A stretch of DNA of 64,000 nucleotides from an uncultured Candidatus Saccharibacteria bacterium (GTDB lineage Bacteria; Patescibacteriota; Minisyncoccia; Phycocordibacterales; UBA1006), in assembly GCA_964592365.1 (NCBI GenBank), contig CAZQDL010000002.1, positions 86,139 through 150,138 on the forward strand, in the 5' to 3' direction. Below the pieces are notes generated by a model. It was given only the letters and a program-made list of their open reading frames with translations. It ran no database searches and was not told the origin of the DNA. A program made the position numbers and the translations under genes. Positions 1,488-48,286 of the stretch are shown here, in pieces (position 1 is the first letter of the stretch; every line of letters begins with the position of its first letter).

Positions 1488-1518
1488 AAAAAAGAAGATT
1501 TAATCTTCTTTTTTTGTA
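1488..1518. terminator. bidirectional hairpin terminator (aaaagaagatt/aatcttctttt)
   Basis: Inverted repeat flanked by A-run and T-run between convergent genes. Confidence 0.65.
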
Positions 1519-2066
1519 AACCTTCTTTCAAGAAGTGCTTCTGTTCCTGAATCAAGCTTATCCGTTACAATTACCATGAGTTCATCCTCAAGACCCAAGT
1601 CTTCTTTCATGTTGATCATCATGTGTTCAAGGGGAAAAGGGGATATCCAAATTGAACTTTTTAGTTGAACAAATTGTGCTTTTTTAAGTATGTATCGAAC
1701 AGCATCTCGTTGGGTTTTTTGGTCTTCTTTGATATCTAAAATGATAATACGCCAATATCCATCCCATGTAGTTGGAACAAGGTGGTTTCTAGCAGATAAT
1801 TTAATGTTCCTTAGTTTATGTCTACCCTCAGAAGAAAGACTTAAAAAAGAAGACTGTTCTGTTTCATGCTCATGTAGCATCTCACCTTCAATCATTTGCT
1901 TAATAGCCCTATTCACAAGATATTTAGGTTTTACCTTTCTTTCCTCATCTTGATCTTCGATAATGGCTTCCACGTATCGTGTCACTTCATCAGAACGAGC
2001 TGCTTTTTTTCCGGAAAGGAAATCAAGAATAAGTTCTTGAATGCTTTTTTTAGACGAATTTTTCAT
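1500..2066 (-). CDS. PaaX-like transcriptional regulator (winged-helix N-terminus + PaaX_C/Cas2-like C-terminal domain)
   Basis: C-terminal WDGYWRIIILDIKEDQKTQRDAVRYILKKAQFVQLKSSIWISP resembles the PaaX C-terminal W.G.W..V.Y......R..R......GFG.L...VWISP pattern; N-terminal part is HTH-like. Shorter than E. coli PaaX. Divergent from the grpE operon. Confidence 0.5.
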   Translation of the reverse strand: MKNSSKKSIQELILDFLSGKKAARSDEVTRYVEAIIEDQDEERKVKPKYLVNRAIKQMIEGEMLHEHETEQSSFLSLSSEGRHKLRNIKLSARNHLVPTTWDGYWRIIILDIKEDQKTQRDAVRYILKKAQFVQLKSSIWISPFPLEHMMINMKEDLGLEDELMVIVTDKLDSGTEALLERRFTKKED

Positions 2067-15107: not shown

Positions 15108-15686
15108 ATGGATTTTGAAAACAAAGAGCATTCAGTAGGTTTTTTCACCGAAAGCGCTCATGAAAGAAAATCTCCCGATATAGGACATCCATATACCTTA
15201 CTCATTCAAAGAAAAGATGTCTGGAAGGGAGTAGGTACAACCCAAATGTCACCAAAGCTTGGTGAAAATAAGGTATACCGAATGATCTTGAAACAACATA
15301 TTGAACATCTTCCTTTGATGTTTCGATATCTTGTATTGTGGTGTGAATTATTCATATCAAGAACTATTTCTGAAAAACTGCTTGTGTTGGCTTTCTTGAA
15401 AAAAGCTAATCTATATCCAATTTCTTTTTATTTGGCATACCAAAGGGATGAACAAATAATGAGAAATGTATTTCATGTAACGAGGGTTGTAACTGCTGAT
15501 TATCGACGAATCAATTCACCACTTGAGTTAACCATGGAAAATCTCTTAGAGATGAAAAAAGAAGAAATAATTTCTGGTAATATTTTTACAGCAGTCATTG
15601 CAGAAGAAAATTTATACCAAAGAAGAAACCCAAATGCTGTGCCATATATTGGTTTCAAAAAAATTATGCAAATGAATAAAAGTTGA
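15108..15686 (+). CDS. hypothetical protein
   Basis: 192-aa ORF, no recognisable motif; followed by a terminator. Confidence 0.35.
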   Translation: MDFENKEHSVGFFTESAHERKSPDIGHPYTLLIQRKDVWKGVGTTQMSPKLGENKVYRMILKQHIEHLPLMFRYLVLWCELFISRTISEKLLVLAFLKKANLYPISFYLAYQRDEQIMRNVFHVTRVVTADYRRINSPLELTMENLLEMKKEEIISGNIFTAVIAEENLYQRRNPNAVPYIGFKKIMQMNKS

Positions 15687-15998: not shown

Positions 15999-17063
15999 AT
16001 GGCAAACCGACAACTGCACCGAACCGTACTATTACAAACACTTTTTGAATGGGATATACGTGGAAAGAATAGTCTTGAAATTCCTCTGTACCTTTCATAC
16101 ATATCAACTGCATTTAATGAAATTCATGATGCTGATCAAAAGGAACTTTCAATGTTCCTTCAAGAGCTCATGAAAAAACAGGTAGTTATTGATGACATTA
16201 TTGAAAAAGCAGCCCCATCATGGCCACTTGAAAAAATTTCCATTACTGATCGTAATGTACTTCGACTTGGATTATATGAACTGTTGTTTGGAGACAGGGA
16301 ACAGGTACCACCTAAGGTTGCAATAAATGAATCTATTGAATTAGCAAAACGCTTTGGAGGTCCAAAGAGTGGAAGATTCGTAAATGGAATTATCGGTGCT
16401 GTGTATAAAGAAATTGGTGAACCTGGAAAAGAAGATTTCGTAAATCAAAAAGTTCAATCTGTTTCATATGAAGATATGCCTATCGAACAAAAAGGTGCTG
16501 CTGTTGTGTACAGTATTGATGCACAGGGAGTTATTAGAATTGGAATGGTGCATGATGTTTTTGGGTATTGGACCCTATCAAAAGGGAGTATCGGAGAACA
16601 AGAAGCTGTAACTGATGGTGTTATTCGAAAGATAAAAGAAGAAACAAATTGGGATATAGAAATCATTGCTGATTTAGGTGATAACGAGTACATCGCATAT
16701 CCACCTGAAAAAGGACCAACACGAAAACATGTTCATTATTTTCTTGCGAAATCACCATACGTTAATCCTACCTTAGGATCACAATCAGGTGGATTAAATG
16801 ATGTTCGTTGGTTTGAACTATCAGAGATCACTGACCTAACCATCTATGATGATGTTTCTCAAATGCTTATCAAATCAATTGGACTCATTAGTGAAAAAGA
16901 AGGAAGAATAGAAAAATTAGGAGCAACAGCACCAAACCTTTCACAGCCTGATATTGATAGTATGAATAGAGATCAACTCGAAGTTCTTGCGCGATCAAGA
17001 GGAGTTGAGGAAACTGAAACTATGGATGATATAACCTTAAAAACTAAGTTACGAGAATCATAA
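15999..17063 (+). CDS. nusB: NusB-domain / Nudix-like-domain fusion protein with Rho_N/SAP-like C-terminal tail
   Basis: N-terminal ~135 aa: R..LLQTLFEWD...PPKVAINESIELAKRFGGPKSGRFVNGIIGAV = NusB fold motifs. Central region YWTLSKGSIGEQEAVTDGVIRKIKEETNW fits the Nudix box Gx5Ex7REUxEExGU (RK..EE present). C-terminal SMNRDQLEVLARSRGVEETETMDDITLKTKL resembles a Rho-N/SAP-like helix-extended-helix. TGgTACAAT 6 nt upstream of ATG. Confidence 0.7.
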   Translation: MANRQLHRTVLLQTLFEWDIRGKNSLEIPLYLSYISTAFNEIHDADQKELSMFLQELMKKQVVIDDIIEKAAPSWPLEKISITDRNVLRLGLYELLFGDREQVPPKVAINESIELAKRFGGPKSGRFVNGIIGAVYKEIGEPGKEDFVNQKVQSVSYEDMPIEQKGAAVVYSIDAQGVIRIGMVHDVFGYWTLSKGSIGEQEAVTDGVIRKIKEETNWDIEIIADLGDNEYIAYPPEKGPTRKHVHYFLAKSPYVNPTLGSQSGGLNDVRWFELSEITDLTIYDDVSQMLIKSIGLISEKEGRIEKLGATAPNLSQPDIDSMNRDQLEVLARSRGVEETETMDDITLKTKLRES

Positions 17064-17064
17064 T

Positions 17065-17751
17065 ATGGAAGCATATCTAACATTTGAATCTTCATTGGGA
17101 ATTTCTTTTGAAAACAAGCGTTTGCTACAACAAGCCTTTATCCATCGATCGTATATCAATGAAAATAAAGGTCTTGGTCTTGAGCATAATGAACGACTTG
17201 AGTTTTTAGGTGATGCCGTACTTGAACTTGTCGTAACTGATTTCTTGTACAAGCAGTATCCAGACATTGATGAGGGAATTCTAACAGCATATCGTTCATC
17301 ATTGGTACGCACAGAATCAATTTCAGAAGCAGCACGAACAATGGGAATGAATGAGTTACTTCTTCTTTCTAAGGGGGAATCAAAAGATCAGGGAAAAGCT
17401 CGTGATTATATTCTCGCTAACACTTTTGAATCTTTTGTTGGTGCTGTTTATTTAGATCAAGGGTATGACGTTGCACGTAAGGTAATTGCTGATGCATTAT
17501 TTGATAATATTCTACATGTTATTGATAATGGGACATGGAAAGATGCTAAGTCTCGCTTTCAAGAACTTGCCCAAGAGAAATATTCTGAAACTCCACGCTA
17601 CGAACTAATTTCTGCAGTTGGTCCAGACCATCAAAAGAAATTTATCATCGCCGTATATGTTGGAGAAAAAGAATGTGCACGAGGAACAGGAAAAAGTAAA
17701 CAAGAGGCACAGCAAGATGCAGCTGCACAAGCATTAGAAAAAGAAGCCTAG
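17065..17751 (+). CDS. rnc: ribonuclease III
   Basis: ERLEFLGDAVLELVVTDFLY RNase III signature plus C-terminal dsRBD; 2-nt gap from the previous gene. Confidence 0.93.
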   Translation: MEAYLTFESSLGISFENKRLLQQAFIHRSYINENKGLGLEHNERLEFLGDAVLELVVTDFLYKQYPDIDEGILTAYRSSLVRTESISEAARTMGMNELLLLSKGESKDQGKARDYILANTFESFVGAVYLDQGYDVARKVIADALFDNILHVIDNGTWKDAKSRFQELAQEKYSETPRYELISAVGPDHQKKFIIAVYVGEKECARGTGKSKQEAQQDAAAQALEKEA

Positions 17752-17809
17752 TTATTATGGCTTTTTTCTATATATCAACTCATGATTGTGATATACTAGA
17801 ATATTATAT

Positions 17810-20017
17810 ATGCATCTTAAACGATTAGAACTTAACGGTTTTAAGTCATTCGCTCATACTAGTGAATTTGTTTTTGATGTCCCTATCATTGCTATTGTAG
17901 GACCAAATGGATCTGGAAAATCAAATGTGGTTGAAGCTATTCGATTTGTGTTAGGAGAACAGTCAGTGAAATCAATGAGAGGGAAGACTGGATCGGATTT
18001 GATTTTCAAGGGATCAAAAGACATATCAAAAATGTCTCGTGCACGAGTGTCAATTACTTTTGATAACAAAAATCGAGTTTTCTATATCAATCAAGGTGAC
18101 ACCAAAGAAATTAGTGTAGACTTCGATGAGGTGACCATCGGAAGAGAAGTTTTTTCAGATGGAAGTAGTGTATATCGAATTAATGGTACTGAAGTGAGAA
18201 TGAAAGATATCCATGAACTTATCGCTTCTATTAACATTGGTTCTTCAGGGCACCATATTATCTCTCAAGGAGAAGCTGATCGATATTTAAATGCAAATGC
18301 AAGAGATCGTCGTACATTAATCGAAGAAGCACTTGGTTTAAAGGTGTATCAATATCGATTAAAAGAATCATTACGAAAGTTAAAGAAAGCAGAAGAAAAT
18401 CTAAGAGAAACTGAATTGTTAAGAAGAGAGATTGCCCCACACATTCGTTTCCTTAAAAAACAGGTTGAAAAAATACAACGAGCTAAAGAGCTACGAGTTA
18501 TTCTTGAAGAACAGTACCTTGATTATCTCAAACGAGAAGATTTTTATATAAAACATCTTCAAAAAACTTTGCAGCAACAAGAGGAAATTCTTCTTGAAGA
18601 AAAGAGAGAGGTTGATATTTATCTTGCTTCTCATCAGCAACAAACAGTAGAGCAGATTTCAGAGGAAAAAGATTTAATGGATGTTGAAAGAAAACTTTCA
18701 GGTATTAGACAGCAAAAACAAGAATACCTAAGAGAGATTGGCCGACTTGAAGGAATGATTTCAGTGTTGCAAAAACCAAAGCAAACTTCGGTGAATAAGC
18801 AGTTTTCGTACCAAAGAATTGTAACATTCAAAGAAGAGATTCAGGGTATTATAAATACTCTTAACCGTACTGATATCAGTTCACTTACTCATTTCCTCTC
18901 TATTCTTTCTGAAAAATTAGATCATCTCATCGGAGAGCATACAGAAGAAACTATCCATGAAGATACCTCGCTTCAGGAATTCCTAGCAAAGGAGAGTCTT
19001 TTGAGAGAATCACTTTCTGATATTTCTCTTCAAGAAGATGGCTTGATAAAAGAAATTGTAGGAATTCAAGAAGTAATTTCTAAAAAAAGAATCAAGCAAC
19101 AAGAAGAACAGAGAGAATTCTTCATCATGCAATCAAGGAAAAAGGAACTTGATGGAAAACAAGAACTTCTCCATTCGAAAAAACAATCACTTCTTCATCG
19201 TATTGCTGATCGTGATTTAGAATATCAAGAAGCTCTTGTTTTATTAGGATTAAATCAACTTGAAATACAAGAAACTGATTTCAATGAGGTAACTACAGAA
19301 TCTCAAACACAGTTAAGAAGAGAACTTGAACGTAACAAGATTCGTCTTGAAGACATGGGTGGAGGAACTGGAATAGAAACAGTTAAAGAATATGAGGAAA
19401 CAGTACAGCGGGATGAATTTTTGTCGAAAGAAATTGATGATGTACAAACCACTATTACTTCCTTAAATCAGATCATTAATGAATTAAAGGGAACCTTAAA
19501 TATTGAATTCAATGCTGGAGTAGAAAAAATTAATATTCAATTCAATAACTTCTTTACCCTTATGTTTGGTGGAGGAAAGGCTGTGCTAAAAGAGGTTATT
19601 ATGAAAAAGAAAAAGTCACCAGAAGAAGAATTTGATACTTCTGAAGACGAAAACCAAGAAGAGTATGGTATTGATATTGCTGTAGAGCTACCTCGAAAGA
19701 AAGTATCTGATCTTGATATGCTCTCAGGAGGAGAACGATCATTAACATCAATTGCTTTGCTTTTTGCACTGTCTCAAGTAAATCCACCACCTTTTTTGGT
19801 ACTTGATGAAACTGATGCTGCCTTAGATGAAGCAAATAGTCAAAAGTATGGTGATATGATTGAATCACTATCAGCATATTCACAACTTATTTTAGTTACG
19901 CATAACAGAGAAACCATGAGTAGAGCACAGACACTATTTGGAGTTACGCTTGGTCGGGATGATGCATCAACAATGCTTTCGCTTCGATTAGAGGATGCAG
20001 AAAAGTATGCGAAATAA
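17810..20017 (+). CDS. smc: SMC-family chromosome-segregation ATPase, unusually short (735 aa), no recognisable hinge
   Basis: N-terminus MHLKRLELNGFKSFAHTSEFVF...IVGPNGSGKSNVVEAIRFVLGEQS is a textbook SMC head; C-terminus LSGGERSLTSIALLFAL...LVLDETDAALD carries the signature motif and Walker B. Middle ~400 aa are coiled-coil-like with no glycine-rich hinge. rnc-smc synteny as in B. subtilis. Confidence 0.75.
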   Translation: MHLKRLELNGFKSFAHTSEFVFDVPIIAIVGPNGSGKSNVVEAIRFVLGEQSVKSMRGKTGSDLIFKGSKDISKMSRARVSITFDNKNRVFYINQGDTKEISVDFDEVTIGREVFSDGSSVYRINGTEVRMKDIHELIASINIGSSGHHIISQGEADRYLNANARDRRTLIEEALGLKVYQYRLKESLRKLKKAEENLRETELLRREIAPHIRFLKKQVEKIQRAKELRVILEEQYLDYLKREDFYIKHLQKTLQQQEEILLEEKREVDIYLASHQQQTVEQISEEKDLMDVERKLSGIRQQKQEYLREIGRLEGMISVLQKPKQTSVNKQFSYQRIVTFKEEIQGIINTLNRTDISSLTHFLSILSEKLDHLIGEHTEETIHEDTSLQEFLAKESLLRESLSDISLQEDGLIKEIVGIQEVISKKRIKQQEEQREFFIMQSRKKELDGKQELLHSKKQSLLHRIADRDLEYQEALVLLGLNQLEIQETDFNEVTTESQTQLRRELERNKIRLEDMGGGTGIETVKEYEETVQRDEFLSKEIDDVQTTITSLNQIINELKGTLNIEFNAGVEKINIQFNNFFTLMFGGGKAVLKEVIMKKKKSPEEEFDTSEDENQEEYGIDIAVELPRKKVSDLDMLSGGERSLTSIALLFALSQVNPPPFLVLDETDAALDEANSQKYGDMIESLSAYSQLILVTHNRETMSRAQTLFGVTLGRDDASTMLSLRLEDAEKYAK

Positions 20018-23106: not shown

Positions 23107-23169
23107 CATACCTGAAAGTATACCACATGTACTTGCTAAATAAGGACGATTTGATAGGATAGCGGTCAT

Positions 23170-23739
23170 ATGTTAATGATGAGATTACAAAGAATTGGTC
23201 GTCGAAACGAAGCACACTTTAAAGTTGTGGTTATTGAAAAGACCAAAGGACCAAAGTCACAAAAGTATGTTGATATTATTGGTTCATACAATCCAAAGCT
23301 AGGGAATGTAACTATTAATGCTGAAAAGGCAAATAAGTGGTTATCAGAGGGAGTACAACCTTCAGATACCGTACGTAACTTCCTAATTAGCCAAGGAATC
23401 CTTGAAGGAAGAAAGGTAAATGCATTACCAAAGAAATCTCCTACAAAGAAGAAAAATGCCCCTGAGGTAGAAGAAAAACCAGAACCAAAGGTAGTTGTAG
23501 AAGAAGTTAAGGCTCCAGAAGTTGTTGAAGAAGTAACTGAAGCACCAGCTGAAGTTGTTGAAGAAACTCCAGAAGCAAGTGAAGAAGTATCTGAAGTTGT
23601 TGAAACACCAGAAGTTGCAGAAGAAGTTTCAGAACCTGGTGCTGAAGAGGTAGAAACACCAGCTGAAGTAGTTGAAGAAGCACCTGAAATAGTTACAGAA
23701 GAGTCTTCAGAAGAAGAAAAAGAAGAAACCACCGTATAG
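23170..23739 (+). CDS. rpsP: 30S ribosomal protein S16 (bS16) with ~110-aa acidic PEV-repeat C-terminal extension
   Basis: N-terminal ~80 aa MRLQRIGRRNEAHFKVVVIEKTKGPKSQKYVDIIGSYNP... = bS16; remainder is low-complexity PEVVEE(V/T)... repeats. Confidence 0.85.
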   Translation: MLMMRLQRIGRRNEAHFKVVVIEKTKGPKSQKYVDIIGSYNPKLGNVTINAEKANKWLSEGVQPSDTVRNFLISQGILEGRKVNALPKKSPTKKKNAPEVEEKPEPKVVVEEVKAPEVVEEVTEAPAEVVEETPEASEEVSEVVETPEVAEEVSEPGAEEVETPAEVVEEAPEIVTEESSEEEKEETTV

Positions 23740-23912: not shown

Positions 23913-24416
23913 ATGAAATCTAAAGGATTTACATTAATTGAACTGCTGGTCGTGGTAGCCATTATTGGGATATTGGCAACGGTAGTGTTGGCATCACTAG
24001 GAAGTGCCCGAGTGAGAGCTCGAGATGCTTCAATTAGAGCATCACTTACAGGAATGCGGGCTCAAGCAGAGTTGCAATACCTTGTTGATGGTAATTACAA
24101 TAATATTTGTGATCCTGAAAGTCAGTCAGGAAAGATGTTTGCAGCAGCACATGCTTTATCTTCCGTCTCTTCAACAACAATGAATCTTTGTGCAGATCAA
24201 GATGGATATTTTGGAGTAGTTCCTGGAGGTACTTTACCAACAGGAGATCTAGGAGCTTATATGGGAACGGATTCAAATGGAACTGTTTGGCTTGCTGAAA
24301 TTCAGTTAAATAGCGGAGGATGGTTTTGTGTTGATTCAAATGGAGCAGCGAATAATGTGAGTACGATATCTCGTGTAGGAAGCCCAATGGATAAGACGTG
24401 TAATCCAGCTTCTTAA
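23913..24416 (+). CDS. type IV pilin-like protein (prepilin N-terminal cleavage/methylation motif), paralog 1
   Basis: [39 protein letters not shown]: class III signal (G|FTLIEL), hydrophobic alpha1-N helix; two C-terminal Cys (D-region). Confidence 0.85.
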
Positions 24417-29950: not shown

Positions 29951-29959
29951 TCATTGTAT

Positions 29960-30430
29960 ATGAAGAATAAAGGATTCACCTTAATTGAATTACTTGTAGT
30001 TGTTGCCATTATCGGAATACTCGCAACGGTGGTATTAGCATCACTTGGAAGTGCAAGAACAAGAGCTCGAGATGCAGCAATCAAATCATCACTATCAAGT
30101 ATGAGAACTCAAGCTGAGTTACAGTATCTTGTAGCAAATAACTATAATGATATTTGTGATTTAGAATCACAAACTGGAAAAATATTTAGAGATGCTTTTT
30201 CAAAAGCAGGAGTTGGTTCTTCAAGTAATGCTTGTAGAGATAGTAACGGGACCTTTAGTGGAAACACTGGAGGAACACTTATCTCAAGCGCACCGGTGTT
30301 TCCAGATGCATGGAAAGTTCGAATTAAGCTAAATGCAGGAGATTGGATCTGTTTAGATAGTACAGGTTCATTGGTTGAAGTTACGACAGCCCCATCATAC
30401 GATACGGGAAATTCTGACTGTACTACATAA
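29960..30430 (+). CDS. type IV pilin-like protein, paralog 2
   Basis: [39 protein letters not shown]; closest to paralog 1 (…[25 protein letters not shown]…). ORF track start 29954 is TTG; ATG at 29960. Confidence 0.85.
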   Translation: MKNKGFTLIELLVVVAIIGILATVVLASLGSARTRARDAAIKSSLSSMRTQAELQYLVANNYNDICDLESQTGKIFRDAFSKAGVGSSSNACRDSNGTFSGNTGGTLISSAPVFPDAWKVRIKLNAGDWICLDSTGSLVEVTTAPSYDTGNSDCTT

Positions 30431-38624: not shown

Positions 38625-38627
38625 TTG

Positions 38628-38701
38628 TACGCCCAGAGGGATTCGAACCCCCAACTTCCGAGGAATAAGCTCGGCACTCTAGCCAATTGAGTTATAGGCG
38701 C
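38628..38701 (-). tRNA. tRNA, anticodon apparently UAU (Ile/AUA) with unusual U37 and two G-U pairs in the acceptor stem
   Basis: Minus-strand read gcgccua-u-a-acuc-aauuggcua-gagu-g-ccgag-cuUAUuc-cucgg-aaguu-ggggg-UUCGAAU-cccuc-ugggcgu-a (73 nt; CCA not encoded). Perfect anticodon stem; 7-nt loop c-u-U-A-U-u-c. Confidence 0.55.
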
Positions 38702-41832: not shown

Positions 41833-41997
41833 ATGAAATCAAAAGGATTCACCCTCATTGAACTATTGGTAGTAGTTGCCATTATTGGAATACTTGCAAC
41901 TGTGGTATTAGCTAGTCTAAGTTCTGGTCGAGCATCAGCACGAGATGCACGACGTTTAGCTGATATTAAAACCATTCAGACAGCACTTGAGTTATAT
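41833..41997 (+). repeat. ~165-bp near-identical direct repeat (5' end of pilin-3), copy A
   Basis: The first ~165 nt of genes 41833 and 43126 differ at one position (cagaca vs caaaca) by direct comparison. Confidence 0.8.
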
Positions 41998-42354
41998 AAT
42001 ACCGAAAATGGTAAATATCCTACGACAGCTTGGGCTGTAGGAGATCAACCTTCTTGGACTACCTTAGAAAACATTTTAGGAGTTAATTTACCTGATGACC
42101 CACTAAACACGAACACAAACAACGTATCAAATGCAGCTACGGCAGGAGATTACATGTATGCATATTTTGCAAATAATGACACTGGCTTCTGCTTTGGAAG
42201 AGCTTATATGATTGTTGCTAACTTTGAAACTAAAATTGATACTTCTCCAGGGGTAAGATTCTGTAATAATGCTACTTTTGGATACGGTAACTCAATTGTA
42301 GTTGGTGTTAATGACAGAGGAGAATTTATTGGTCCTACTTTAACAAAAAAGTAA
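41833..42354 (+). CDS. type IV pilin-like protein, paralog 3
   Basis: [55 protein letters not shown]...; two C-terminal Cys. Confidence 0.85.
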   Translation: MKSKGFTLIELLVVVAIIGILATVVLASLSSGRASARDARRLADIKTIQTALELYNTENGKYPTTAWAVGDQPSWTTLENILGVNLPDDPLNTNTNNVSNAATAGDYMYAYFANNDTGFCFGRAYMIVANFETKIDTSPGVRFCNNATFGYGNSIVVGVNDRGEFIGPTLTKK

Positions 42355-43125: not shown

Positions 43126-43290
43126 ATGAAATCAAAAGGATTCACCCTCATTGAACTATTGGTAGTAGTTGCCATTATTGGAATACTTGCAACTGTGGTA
43201 TTAGCTAGTCTAAGTTCTGGTCGAGCATCAGCACGAGATGCACGACGTTTAGCTGATATTAAAACCATTCAAACAGCACTTGAGTTATAT
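43126..43290 (+). repeat. ~165-bp near-identical direct repeat (5' end of pilin-4), copy B
   Basis: See copy A; the two copies flank recR. Confidence 0.8.
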
Positions 43291-43650
43291 GCTCTTGATA
43301 ACGGAGGACAATATCCTACCCCAGGTTGGGCAAGTAGCAACGTTGCAAGCTCCTGGGCAGCTTTAGAAACTCAATTAGGAACCACCTTACCTAAAGACCC
43401 TACTAATCAAACGAGTACGAGTACCTCTTCTGTCACCACAGGTTTGTATACCTATGGATATTACGCACATGCTCAGGCTGCACAATGCTCAGGAAGAGCA
43501 TATATGCTTGTTGTAAATCTTGAAACTAAAAGAGATACTTCTGCTGGTGTATACTTATGTGATACAACTCGTGGATATGGTGATGCTCTTGTTGTTGGTA
43601 TGGATGGAAATGGAAATTTAATTGGACCAGGTACCTTAACTAACAAGTAA
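43126..43650 (+). CDS. type IV pilin-like protein, paralog 4
   Basis: N-terminal 55 aa identical to paralog 3; C-terminal CSGRAYMLVVNLETKRDTSAGVYLCDTTRGYG parallels paralog 3 CFGRAYMIVANFETKIDTSPGVRFCNNATFGYG. Confidence 0.85.
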   Translation: MKSKGFTLIELLVVVAIIGILATVVLASLSSGRASARDARRLADIKTIQTALELYALDNGGQYPTPGWASSNVASSWAALETQLGTTLPKDPTNQTSTSTSSVTTGLYTYGYYAHAQAAQCSGRAYMLVVNLETKRDTSAGVYLCDTTRGYGDALVVGMDGNGNLIGPGTLTNK

Positions 43651-45145: not shown

Positions 45146-46942
45146 ATGTCATCTGATCAAAAAGTTACCTATTTCGGGGTTACTGATTTTAGGAATAATA
45201 GAACAAAATTTGGAATCAAGAATATTGATCGATCTCGTCATGTCTATGTGATAGGGAAGACAGGTATGGGAAAATCAACTCTCCTTGAAAACATGGCAGC
45301 ACAAGACATTCTCAATGGAGAAGGAATGTGTTTTGTTGATCCTCATGGTTCTGCAATTGATACTTTGCTACAGTATGTTCCTGAACATCGAATCAACGAT
45401 GTAGTATATTTTGCTCCCTTTGATACCGACTTCCCAATTACCTTTAACGTAATGGAAGATGTTGGTGTAGATAAACGGCATTTGGTGGTAAATGGCCTTA
45501 TGGCTTCATTTAAAAAAATATGGCAAGACGCATGGTCTGCGCGAATGGAGTATATCCTTACCAACACCTTACTTGCTTTACTTGAATACCCTGGTTCAAC
45601 CCTTCTTGGGGTAAACAGAATGCTTGCTGAAAAAGAGTATAGAAATGAAGTGGTGAAGCATGTGACTGATGCTTCTGTACGATCTTTTTGGATTGATGAG
45701 TATGGAAAATGGGATCCTCGATATGCAAAAGAGGCAGGGGCTGCAATTCAAAACAAGATTGGACAATTCACAGCAAATCCATTAATTAGGAATATTATCG
45801 GACAAGAACAATCATCGTTTGATATTCGAAAGGTAATGGATGAACGAAAAATATTGTTAGTAAATCTTTCTAAAGGAAGAATTGGAGAACAAAATGCAAA
45901 ACTATTAGGAGGAATGCTTATTACTAAAATATATTTAGCTGCAATGAGTCGCGCTGAAGTTGGAGCTTCTAATCTTTCTCAACTACCTAATTTCTTTTTC
46001 TTTGTGGACGAGTTTCAGAACTTCGCAACAGAGTCTTTCGCAGACATTCTATCAGAAGCAAGAAAGTATAAGTTAAACCTTACTATTGCACACCAATATG
46101 TTGCACAGATGCAAGAAGAGGTAAAAGACGCAGTGGTGGGTAACGTTGGAACGATGATAACTTTCAGGATTGGAGCAGAAGATGCTGAATTATTTGAAAA
46201 ACAATTCGCTCCAGTATTTACCGCAGAAGATATTGTAAATCTTGGGAAGTTTCAAATATATCTTTCACTAATGATTGATGGAATTGGTTCACGACCATTT
46301 TCTGCAGAAACCATGTCTCCTATCGAAAAGCCAAGAGTGAGCTTGGTACGCGAGGTAATAGAGGCATCACGAGCTAAATACGCACAATCAAGAGTTCTTG
46401 TAGAACAGGATATTGCTAAATGGTATGAACCAATAACAAAACCAGAAAAGAGAAGTATTAATGGTACTAATACAGGAACACAGAAGCCACAAGTCTCAGC
46501 TGAACCAGTTGTGAAGAAAACATTCATCGTTGCAAAAGAAAGAGATACTTCAGGTCCTTTTAAAAAGGCATTGAAAGAACTTGATGAAAAAGAAGCGGAG
46601 CTTGAAATGAAAAAAATAGTTTCCCCACGTTTGAATACTCTTCTTGAAAAACTTGATGGAAAAAAGGAGGTGCTTGGAACAACAACAAAGATACCTGAGG
46701 TTATCAAGAATATTAAAAAGAATGATTCATATGCAACTTCTACACAAAAAAGTGATAGAGCAGCTGACAAAAGTACAAAATCATCCTTACAAGACGCATT
46801 AGCTCGAGCATTAGCTGAAAATAAGCAGAAGGTAGAGAAAAATATTCCTAAGGTGAACATCCCTCAAGAAAAAGAGGAAAATGTTAATGTAAATCAAAAA
46901 AAGGAGATTCCTGAAGATGTACTGAGAGATATTTTAAATTAG
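45146..46942 (+). CDS. TraD/TraG/VirD4-family (HerA/FtsK superfamily) P-loop ATPase, soluble, with K/E-rich C-terminal tail
   Basis: Walker A VIGKTGMGKSTLLEN, then CFVDPHGSAID (vfDPkG-like), Walker B FFFFVDEFQNF, and EARKYKLNLTIAHQYVAQM (TraG-D_C-like RkyGi.l.lA.Q..sQl). No N-terminal TM helices. TGTGATATACT 9 nt upstream of ATG. Confidence 0.6.
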   Translation: MSSDQKVTYFGVTDFRNNRTKFGIKNIDRSRHVYVIGKTGMGKSTLLENMAAQDILNGEGMCFVDPHGSAIDTLLQYVPEHRINDVVYFAPFDTDFPITFNVMEDVGVDKRHLVVNGLMASFKKIWQDAWSARMEYILTNTLLALLEYPGSTLLGVNRMLAEKEYRNEVVKHVTDASVRSFWIDEYGKWDPRYAKEAGAAIQNKIGQFTANPLIRNIIGQEQSSFDIRKVMDERKILLVNLSKGRIGEQNAKLLGGMLITKIYLAAMSRAEVGASNLSQLPNFFFFVDEFQNFATESFADILSEARKYKLNLTIAHQYVAQMQEEVKDAVVGNVGTMITFRIGAEDAELFEKQFAPVFTAEDIVNLGKFQIYLSLMIDGIGSRPFSAETMSPIEKPRVSLVREVIEASRAKYAQSRVLVEQDIAKWYEPITKPEKRSINGTNTGTQKPQVSAEPVVKKTFIVAKERDTSGPFKKALKELDEKEAELEMKKIVSPRLNTLLEKLDGKKEVLGTTTKIPEVIKNIKKNDSYATSTQKSDRAADKSTKSSLQDALARALAENKQKVEKNIPKVNIPQEKEENVNVNQKKEIPEDVLRDILN

Positions 46943-46954
46943 CTTAATGCTGTA

Positions 46955-48286
46955 TTGATAAAAACGAATGATATGTATTTCATTCGTTTTTGTTTTCTCT
47001 TAGTTATTTTTCTACCAACACTTGCACATGCACAATTTTCTATTACAGAAATTATGTATGATGCAGAGGGAACAGATACAGGAAATGAATGGGTGGAGGT
47101 GAAAAATACTTCCAATCAGGAACATGATTTTTCAAAGTGGTACTTTAGAGAAAATGAAGTGGATCATAGGTTAACATCATTTGGATCTGAACTTATACAA
47201 CCAGGAGAATATGCCATTATTATCTCAAACCAAGAAAACTTCGAAGCCGCATTTGGTGCAAATCACCAATTATTCAAAAGTTCATTTTCTTTGAATAATA
47301 CAGGAGAGTTAATTGCACTAAGAAATCCAGAGAAAGAATTAGTGACACAATATTTATATTCTTCAGATAGTGGGGCAGCAGGGGATGGAAATAGTCTTCA
47401 ATATAATGGAACAACTTTTGTTTCGAGATCTCCAAGCCCCTCTGAAGATATCAATAATCAACAGGAACAAACAAATACTACAGAATCAGGAACTACATCA
47501 AAAACAACAAGTACACGTTCACAGGAAAAAGAATTCATTCCATACTATGAAGCACATATACAAGTAGACGAAACTATCCTTGCTGGGAATCAGACAACAA
47601 TACGCCCCTTGGTATATCATCATAAAGAAAGAGAAGTATCTCATGTAAAAATAAGAGGTGTGTATTTATTAAATATGGGTGATGGTACCCAACATATATA
47701 TGATGAACGTATGGAGTTTGATCATATATATCAATCTCCTGGAACATATATTCAAAGTCTTGCTTTCTATTCAAGTTCCTTCAGATATGAACAGCAAGAA
47801 CAACCAACATTGATATATACTCAATTGATCACCGTATATCAACCAGATGTATCAATATCAGCTAATGAATTTGGAGGATTGGAAATTGCTAATATGCAAA
47901 ATCATCCACTTGATGTCTCAGGGTGGAAGATTACTCACCCTCTTGGATCCTTTGAATTTCCTTCATATAGCTACATTACTCAAAAGGCTTCCATTTCAAT
48001 TCCATATCATATCCTTGGTGCTTACGTTACAAGTGAAATCATTCATGACATTGATATATGGAACCATGATAATTACTCTGTGGTTGCTAAAGAAGAAGTT
48101 CAAGAACCAATCCAGAAAATTGAAAAAGTCGAAGAAGTAATTGTAAGGGAAGAAGTGACTCTTCCTGAAGCTAAGGATGAAGATACTAATCAATATCCCT
48201 TCATCGTTGGTTTTATTATCTCAACTCTTATCATCGCAGGTGTACGTTACTACAAGAAAAATATTGAAAAAGAACCTATTGGATAG
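46955..48286 (+). CDS. secreted lamin-tail-domain (LTD) protein with C-terminal membrane anchor
   Basis: Signal peptide then FSITEIMYDAEGTDTGNEWVEVKNTSNQEHDFSKWYF...IQPGEYAIII...NNTGELIALRNPEKELVTQY = canonical LTD; a second LTD-like segment (SANEFGGLEIANMQNHPLDVSGWKITH); C-terminal TM FIVGFIISTLIIAGV. 12 nt after the ATPase gene. Confidence 0.8.
   Translation: MIKTNDMYFIRFCFLLVIFLPTLAHAQFSITEIMYDAEGTDTGNEWVEVKNTSNQEHDFSKWYFRENEVDHRLTSFGSELIQPGEYAIIISNQENFEAAFGANHQLFKSSFSLNNTGELIALRNPEKELVTQYLYSSDSGAAGDGNSLQYNGTTFVSRSPSPSEDINNQQEQTNTTESGTTSKTTSTRSQEKEFIPYYEAHIQVDETILAGNQTTIRPLVYHHKEREVSHVKIRGVYLLNMGDGTQHIYDERMEFDHIYQSPGTYIQSLAFYSSSFRYEQQEQPTLIYTQLITVYQPDVSISANEFGGLEIANMQNHPLDVSGWKITHPLGSFEFPSYSYITQKASISIPYHILGAYVTSEIIHDIDIWNHDNYSVVAKEEVQEPIQKIEKVEEVIVREEVTLPEAKDEDTNQYPFIVGFIISTLIIAGVRYYKKNIEKEPIG

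Follow-up and report, generated by a model that had tools for sequence, protein, structure and literature searches.

The hinge is commonly described as a defining domain of structural maintenance of chromosomes (SMC) proteins, serving dimerisation, DNA binding and loading, and several models of loop extrusion rest on communication between hinge and heads along an arm of ~50 nm. What kind of protein, then, is encoded by an smc-like gene in which no hinge can be recognised? The question is raised by a gene of 735 codons on contig CAZQDL010000002.1 of assembly GCA_964592365.1, within a stretch of 64,000 nucleotides (positions 86,139 to 150,138, hereafter the window) in which the original prediction, made from the sequence alone, had described a minimal SMC-like ATPase. 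Our analysis indicates that the product is very probably a Smc (condensin) orthologue of the Paceibacteria/Parcubacteria of the candidate phyla radiation (CPR), belonging to a very large family in which either strand of the arm is shortened by roughly half and the hinge is lost, and for which we infer both function and dimerisation at the arm tip.

The protein is a bacterial Smc in head, neck and joint

The assignment to Smc was supported by sequence profiles. A Pfam scan returned SMC_N as the sole match (1.2e-65, residues 2-719), covering the two halves of the head and treating everything between them as an insertion. Among NCBIfam models the bacterial Smc model TIGR02168 scored highest (460.2 bits), ahead of the archaeal-type TIGR02169 (263), Rad50 (55), RecN (53), ASRP (38) and RecF (38); the top score lies below the curated equivalog cut-off of its model (567.35), likely because the hinge and part of the arm are missing. 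The best sequence match in the PDB was the head of Bacillus subtilis Smc (3ZGX, 1.8e-75), aligned over residues 1-219 and 513-733, the second stretch spanning the joint motif (KIRLEDMGGGTGIETVKEYEE here, KLAIEELGTVNLGSIDEFER in B. subtilis). When the full-length AlphaFold model (predicted local distance difference test, pLDDT, 80) was compared with known folds, its best match was 5XEI, a Smc head with coiled coil and joint (E 2.7e-30), and the top PDB matches by sequence and by fold were all Smc.

The motifs that the original prediction had called textbook SMC were all located in the places given for them, with GFKSF at residues 10-14, the Walker A motif GPNGSGKS at 31-38, the signature LSGGE at 638-642 and the Walker B motif with the D-loop, FLVLDETDAALD, at 662-673. 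All ATPase motifs are invariant or nearly so (≥90%) across 118 homologues, and the homologues begin at the identical point of the N-terminus (MHLKRLEL). In the C-terminal half of the head a charged insertion, KKKKSPEEEFDTSEDENQEE, varies in length across the family and is missing from B. subtilis Smc. The earlier suggestion of an architecture closer to RecN or SbcC proved right for the overall architecture and wrong for the head, neck and joint, which are those of a true Smc and not of RecN or SbcC, as judged from the TIGR02168 and RecN scores and from 5XEI as the best fold match. The likeness to RecN extends to overall architecture only: TIGR00634 gave 52.9 bits against a cut-off of 407.85, RecN belongs to another head family, and its genomic context differs. 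A MukB-, MksB- or JetC-type head was not found either, the MukB N-terminal domain being matched by five of 38 family members (best E 0.03) and JetC scoring 31.5 bits.

The genomic position is also that of smc. The window and two related loci, L001 (on a 611-kb contig) and L002, share the gene order dnaE - rnhB - rpmF - nusB/Nudix - rnc - smc - S11 peptidase - RNase R - rpsP, and smc lies downstream of rnc in every one of these three loci. The classical rnc-smc arrangement that had been noted in the window is real, since the upstream gene encodes the ERLEFLGD signature and its counterparts in L001 and L002 carry the Pfam domains Ribonuclease_3 and dsrm. Because it occupies this conserved smc position, the gene is treated here as the Smc orthologue. 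The window as a whole (G+C ~35%, several type IV pilin-like proteins and compact housekeeping genes) has the composition and gene content expected of a Patescibacteria/CPR genome.

These neighbours also bear on whether the protein could be an anti-phage defence ATPase, for example Lamassu LmuB or MADS mad3, a reading prompted by PADLOC scores of 170.7 bits for mad3 and 86.8 bits for LmuB. The two models comprise 374 and 611 positions and score well under the Smc models, while the neighbouring genes are strictly housekeeping and syntenic across species, with no defence partner genes adjoining. Membership of a defence system was rejected on these grounds and is very improbable.

The middle region contains neither a hinge nor a zinc hook

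SMC_hinge (PF06470) gave no Pfam match in the protein at E≤1, and it did not appear when 38 family members were scanned at E≤10, although the 25 families so recorded include some matched by as few as two of these proteins. A profile of the apex searched against the PDB retrieved no hinge chain at E≤10, comparison of the apex fold returned generic helical bundles only, and the AlphaFold models of the full-length protein and of the apex alone are entirely helical in this region. A cryptic hinge was rejected on the Pfam searches and the apex profile. There is, moreover, no room for a hinge of ~170 residues, because the arm strands reverse in a six-residue loop at residues 350-355, as described below. 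A zinc hook was rejected as well, because the protein has no cysteine; CxxC motifs were also missing from the 12 family members sampled.

The hinge-less middle region of the original prediction therefore stands: a divergent hinge, which profile methods might have uncovered, came to light neither by Pfam and the apex profile nor by fold comparison and covariation.

Hundreds of species share the hinge-less architecture

The identical protein is present on 24 contigs from four sources (NCBI, JGI, Logan and ENA). Its best 120 homologues are 692-795 residues long and 47-67% identical to it, and none of them has a Pfam hinge annotation; those of full length fall within a narrow range of 734-795 residues. 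In an exhaustive HMMER search over 1.84 billion representatives, the best 150 clusters at 50% identity had lengths of 584-782 residues and identities down to 40%, with E still at ~1e-135. A scan of GTDB, with one genome per species and the family-specific peptides HHIISQGE and DETDAALD, matched at least 599 stretches, of which at least 549 encode a relative. Every gene in the best 80 of these loci is 2.1-2.3 kb long, and the loci come from metagenome-assembled genomes named Paceibacteria/Paceibacterota, Nomurabacteria, Yonathbacteria, Lloydbacteria, Taylorbacteria or Parcubacteria. A hinge-less Smc of 690-790 residues is thus conserved in more than 150 clusters at 50% identity and in hundreds of species.

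The same data speak to a trivial explanation, namely that a canonical smc gene has lost its middle through misassembly or a frameshift. Such an artefact is hardly credible and was rejected, given that the 24 contigs were assembled independently, that the best 120 homologues vary so little in length, that relatives occur in at least 549 GTDB species and that a continuous, selected coiled-coil register crosses the supposed point of deletion. Truncation by assembly error, against which the original prediction had guarded, was accordingly not found.

The labels of the genomes carrying the gene call for a comment of their own. Many of the GTDB genomes with this Parcubacteria-type gene (L005, L006, L015-L017 and others) are third-party annotation (TPA) assemblies titled 'uncultured Candidatus Saccharibacteria bacterium', one further genome is titled Flavobacteriaceae (L073), and one protein (P0076) bears the label Crocinitomicaceae. 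These names are probably default or mis-binned labels and not the true hosts.

Covariation defines a short arm that ends in a helical hairpin

To describe the arm, covariation was computed by mean-field direct-coupling analysis (DCA) on an alignment of 332 sequences (effective number, Neff, 285). Seventeen of the 20 strongest long-range pairs fall on a single antiparallel register of the distal arm (i+j≈711), and among the top 300 pairs the band 710±3 holds 47 against 7.4 expected (binomial P ~1e-23). This register spans Y236-A475, E293-Q420, I310-L398 and Q321-L392 and continues into F340-L373, I348-L363 and N349-S367; the arm strands reverse in the loop 350-355. An AlphaFold model of the apex alone (residues 296-412, pLDDT 88), with helices at 297-321, 334-350 and 356-411, fits this register. 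By its secondary structure alone, the full-length model had suggested another tip, at the loop 375-386, with a break at 276-283 paired with one at 480-495. This tip was rejected: the DCA register places the reversal at 350-355, and the break at 480-495 belongs to a 33-residue excursion of the C-strand at the joint. In the AlphaFold model residues 276-283 form a short non-helical bulge of the distal-arm N-strand; the distal-arm C-strand is constant in length across the family, with no indels in that part of the alignment (A1).

Each strand of the arm thus measures ~182 residues (171 to 352), compared with 344 in B. subtilis, and the arm would extend ~27 nm if fully coiled (calculated at 0.148 nm per residue), compared with ~47-49 nm (PMC5344682). 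At 735 residues the whole protein has 62% of the length of B. subtilis Smc (1186 residues), in keeping with the figure of roughly 60% given before.

Closer to the head the strands follow a second register (i+j≈744), which runs from I171-I574 to A225-L513 and includes Y180-E566, T201-I542 and I212-V532. Column entropy in this neck is 0.5-0.9 bits; it ranges over 0.04-0.9 bits in head, neck and joint together and rises to 2.5-3 bits in the distal arm, the least conserved part. The shift of 33 residues between the two registers corresponds to the C-strand excursion, which consists of the loop 480-495, the helix 496-516 and a GGGTG turn. By DCA the excursion packs onto residues 236-246 of the N-strand and 455-479 of the C-strand (E474-K510, L470-T500, D469-T496 and E243/Y246-Q499). 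It is a three-helix joint, as in canonical Smc, and the stretch KIRLEDMGGGTG...EYEE aligns with KLAIEELGTVNLGSIDEFER of B. subtilis. Profiles, fold comparison, covariation and conservation thus all favour the hinge-less, short-armed condensin-like protein that had been envisaged.

The arm tip offers a candidate dimerisation face

Without a hinge, how might two such proteins be joined? The only strongly conserved patch of the distal arm lies just below the terminal hairpin, in the motif L/I310-G-R-[IL]-E-G-M-I317 (I310-G-R-L-E-G-M-I317 in this protein), where among the 332 sequences G311 is kept in 299, G315 in 304, E314 in 300 and R312 in 247. Hydrophobicity and DCA identify 306, 310, 313 and 317 as core positions, which sets G311 and G315 at heptad positions b and f, facing outward. 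The two glycines would form a flat face of the GxxxG type suited to docking another helix and so provide a candidate surface for dimerisation. In the helices of the hairpin, conserved hydrophobic residues occupy 38-42% of positions, compared with 24-30% in the two-stranded segments of the distal arm, an excess which suggests that these helices pack against more than each other; the overall hydrophobic fraction of the hairpin is 0.40-0.41, and that of the same arm segments 0.28-0.31. The hairpin is set off from the rest of the arm by two low-confidence loops at equal height, 321-333 and 375-386. Whether the GxxxG face, together with the hairpin at the tip, would hold two protomers in a stable dimer that pivots on these loops appears to us evenly balanced.

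Binding of a kleisin is suggested by conservation at the other end of the molecule. Residues A730, A734 and K735 of the C-terminal tail are invariant, and the conservation of the tail and the neck surface is far stronger than a coiled coil would require, which is why we propose that a kleisin partner may bind there.

In the mechanism we propose from these sequence features, the protein would have retained the ATP-driven, DNA-organising activity of SMC proteins. Two heads would engage on ATP through the Walker A and signature motifs and clamp DNA, and a kleisin would still attach to the conserved neck and to the C-terminal tail with its residues A730, A734 and K735. Dimerisation, normally the task of the hinge, would pass to the arm tip, where a small helical bundle would be built from the G311-x3-G315 face and the hairpin 334-374 of both protomers, and the loops 321-333 and 375-386 would serve as the pivot. 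The outcome would be a rod or ring of ~27 nm, which may suffice for a chromosome of ≤~1 Mb in a very small cell.

Several observations weigh against this proposal. First, no off-register DCA band is significant: the best, at i+j≈671, holds 14 pairs against 6.1 expected and came out of ~160 tests, so that a reading of such bands as homodimer contacts was rejected. Second, if the GRxEG motif is set aside, no other part of the protein is as poorly conserved as the tip (~2.5-3 bits), which is unusual for an obligate interface. Third, dimerisation at the tip would go beyond the predicted models, all of which are of monomers. Fourth, neither ScpA (PF02616) nor ScpB (PF04079) was detected in the ~84 kb of this genome in view, that is, the window and ~10 kb past each of its ends, and a regular expression for the N-terminal ScpA motif F-x-GPLDLLL found no match in 1.47 Mb of related loci, a weak negative. 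Lastly, the extent of this view bears both on a possible kleisin partner and on a possible hinge-bearing Smc paralogue encoded elsewhere in the genome.

With regard to the kleisin, the searches covered 32 open reading frames (ORFs) of the window, 30 of them compared with Pfam and 10 with NCBIfam (8 shared), together with the Pfam annotation of the ~10-kb flanks and the surroundings of the gene in L001 and L002, and ScpA and ScpB were found in none of these. The original prediction had already remarked that scpA and scpB are not adjacent, as our scans of the window and its flanks bear out. Such an absence says little, because scpAB of B. subtilis is not known to adjoin smc either.

The poor conservation of tip loop and hairpin and the lack of a significant off-register band for a homodimer contact are also what lend weight to a second reading, in which the protein is the same Smc orthologue but has no stable dimerisation at the apex. 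It would be a monomer that dimerises only through its ATP-engaged heads, perhaps with a kleisin as a bridge, and the short arm, instead of closing a ring at its tip, would be a lever, a spacer or a rod for binding partners. Against it, the exposed, conserved GxxxG face and the hairpin with its wider hydrophobic stripes must have something to pack against, and to our knowledge every characterised long-armed protein of the SMC superfamily dimerises at its apex, be it by a hinge, a zinc hook or the coiled-coil tip of RecN. We consider this reading unlikely.

A third reading would have the gene encode a neo-functionalised SMC paralogue, such as a RecN-like repair factor, coexisting with a canonical hinge-bearing Smc elsewhere in the genome. 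A head on a short coiled coil without a hinge does resemble RecN, and only ~84 kb of the genome is visible. This is a considerably less probable account: the canonical rnc-smc locus is occupied by this gene in the window, L001 and L002, its head is nearer to Smc than to RecN (460 versus 53 bits), short proteins make up every one of the best 150 representative clusters, and SMC duplications in prokaryotes are said to be undescribed (PMC12153180).

Comparison with known systems

Canonical Smc, as known from B. subtilis, from TIGR02168 and from the structures 3ZGX, 5XG3 and 5XEI, shares with the present protein the ATPase head, the head-proximal coiled coil, the joint (LEDxGGGxG...EYEE here, ...IEELGTVNLGSIDEFER in B. 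subtilis) and the position downstream of rnc. The differences are the missing PF06470 domain, the arm of ~182 instead of 344 residues, the length of 735 instead of 1186 residues and the score under the cut-off. In a survey of prokaryotic Smc proteins the natural arm lengths formed clusters at 238, 341 and 515 residues, and there may be lesser modes at 163 and 423 (Burmann et al. 2017, PMC5344682). That survey located the hinge by alignment and could therefore not have counted any protein that lacks one (PMC5344682).

B. subtilis Smc can function in vivo with shortened arms of permitted lengths or with the Rad50 zinc hook in place of its hinge, and the shortest functional engineered arms, with a hinge, measure ~253-267 residues (PMC5344682). 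These Mini-Smc and zinc-hook chimeras are artificial and keep a hinge or a zinc hook, whereas the present protein is natural, has an arm of ~182 residues and possesses neither module. By analogy, the engineered constructs may be regarded as proof of principle for a hinge-less, short-armed architecture.

Rad50/SbcC and the archaeal ASRP proteins (ClsN, Sph) also lack the SMC hinge and dimerise by a CXXC zinc hook (PMC9389158). They resemble the present protein in having an SMC-superfamily head and a coiled coil without an SMC hinge, and differ from it in that it is devoid of cysteine and scores 37.5 bits with the ASRP model, against a cut-off of 300.

The closest precedent is an abundant marine cluster of 'hinge-less SMC' proteins without CXXC, found in ocean metagenomes, assigned to Actinomycetes and read as a loss of the hinge within bacterial SMC and not as Rad50/SbcC (Sussfeld et al. 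2025, PMC12153180). Compared by description only, the two groups have in common an SMC-type head, an antiparallel coiled coil and the absence of hinge and CXXC, and the architecture of our protein corresponds to the definition of 'hinge-less SMC' given there. They differ in host, Actinomycetes in the one case and Paceibacteria/Parcubacteria in the other, and no register, tip anatomy or synteny is given for the marine cluster (PMC12153180). A literature search, which left most papers in subscription journals outside its reach, found no description of a hinge-less Smc in Patescibacteria, CPR or Parcubacteria. The hinge-less concept therefore has a direct precedent in the marine cluster, and the patescibacterial clade has no description that we found.

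Coordinates and neighbouring genes

Table 1. Features of the hinge-less Smc gene and of rnc, in window coordinates
Feature	Position	Strand	Basis
rnc (RNase III), directly upstream of smc, conserved synteny partner	17065..17751	+	ERLEFLGD signature in translation
Hinge-less Smc gene, complete, stop codon included	17810..20017	+	ATG start, 735 residues
Head, N-terminal half, residues 1-170	17810..18319	+	near-invariant in 118 homologues; aligns to 3ZGX
Walker A, GPNGSGKS	17900-17923	+	motif position
Q-loop, IISQGE	18257-18274	+	motif position
Neck N-strand, residues 171-235, pairs with 522-574	18320..18514	+	DCA, i+j≈744
Distal-arm N-strand, residues 236-320, pairs with 391-475	18515..18769	+	DCA, i+j≈711
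Arm-tip motif, residues 310-317 (putative dimerisation role)	18737..18760	+	conservation
N-strand variable-length loop, residues 321-333, opposite loop 375-386	18770..18808	+	pLDDT <50 over 322-331; gaps in ≤46% of sequences
Terminal helical hairpin: helix 334-349, tip loop 350-355 (18857-18874), helix 356-374	18809..18931	+	DCA, apex model
C-strand variable acidic loop, residues 375-386	18932..18967	+	pLDDT <50 over 375-385; gaps in ≤79% of sequences
Distal-arm C-strand, residues 387-479	18968..19246	+	continuous helix; on-register DCA pairs
Joint: loop 480-495, helix 496-516, G517-G-G-T-G521 turn	19247..19372	+	DCA, B. subtilis alignment, 5XEI
Neck C-strand, residues 522-586	19373..19567	+	DCA, i+j≈744; conserved
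Head, C-terminal half, residues 587-735	19568..20014	+	alignment, motifs
Variable, highly charged insertion KKKKSPEEEFDTSEDENQEE in the C-terminal half of the head	19604-19663	+	low pLDDT over residues 606-614
Signature, LSGGE	19721-19735	+	motif position
Walker B and D-loop, FLVLDETDAALD	19793-19828	+	motif position
H-loop, THN	19898-19906	+	motif position

Several features around the gene were recorded as observations in their own right. The spacer between rnc and smc (17752-17809) is 58 bp long and AT-rich, shows no obvious Shine-Dalgarno sequence ahead of the ATG and includes TGTGATATACT, a possible extended -10 element. Upstream of rnc, a protein of 354 residues (15999-17063, +) combines NusB with a NUDIX hydrolase domain at its C-terminus, and the same fusion lies just upstream of rnc in L001 (8288-9211) and L002 (6611-7519). 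The interval between rnhB and rpmF, which in many bacteria is the position of yceD, contains an ORF of 192 codons in the window (15108-15686, +), with no Pfam or NCBIfam match, and one of 240 codons in L001 (7293-8015). Downstream, rpsP (23170-23739, +) encodes an S16 protein of 189 residues in which the S16 core is followed by an acidic tail rich in Glu, Val and Pro that makes up roughly the final half; the orthologues have 187 (L001) and 152 (L002) residues. The repeat-like nature of this tail probably accounts for a shadow ORF of 188 codons on the opposite strand (23166-23732).

Farther away, the window contains a tRNA-Ile gene with the anticodon TAT (38627-38701, -). AUA is usually read in bacteria by a lysidine-modified CAU tRNA, and a TAT anticodon is thus uncommon. 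Genes for type IV pilin-like proteins occur at no fewer than four separate places on the + strand (23913-24416, 29954-30430, 41833-42354 and 43126-43650); Pfam detects the N-terminal methylation motif in three of them, and the first was so classed by its N-terminal sequence alone. A VirD4/TraG-like type IV coupling ATPase of 598 residues (45146-46942, +), whose TrwB_AAD_bind and TraG-D_C matches are weak, is followed by a Lamin-tail-domain protein (46955-48286, +), and both adjoin dnaB. A protein of 188 residues with a PaaX_M (Cas2-like) domain is encoded at 1500-2066 (-), between a ribosomal protein cluster and grpE-dnaK-dnaJ.

Discussion

The hinge-less Smc described here is a large, conserved and previously under-annotated variant that departs from Smc as usually defined in two features, the hinge and the long arm. 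With regard to annotation, the family lies below the NCBIfam SMC cut-off and is often labelled only 'AAA family ATPase', and a Smc without a hinge would be passed over by any pipeline in which an alignment is used to find that domain.

On what this variant does in the cell, our position is tentative and falls somewhat short of even confidence: the chromosomes of Paceibacteria may be run by a natural minimal SMC, its tips joined by the GxxxG face and the hairpin of ~40 residues between its flexible loops or left unjoined, possibly without ScpAB. Taken with the marine actinobacterial case, this would mean that genome-streamlined lineages have lost the hinge more than once.

The interest of the family lies mainly in its being a natural minimal form of a motor for which both a hinge and a long arm have been considered necessary. 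It is a large natural clade that reveals the conserved core of the machine, namely the Smc head, neck and joint on an arm of ~27 nm ending in a helical hairpin. Being small and free of cysteine, the protein is probably tractable in structural and single-molecule experiments on the parts that DNA translocation requires. There is a hint that genome-streamlined lineages lose the hinge repeatedly and, if the minimal-SMC reading is true, natural SMC proteins would be able to function without a hinge and with only about half of the usual arm.

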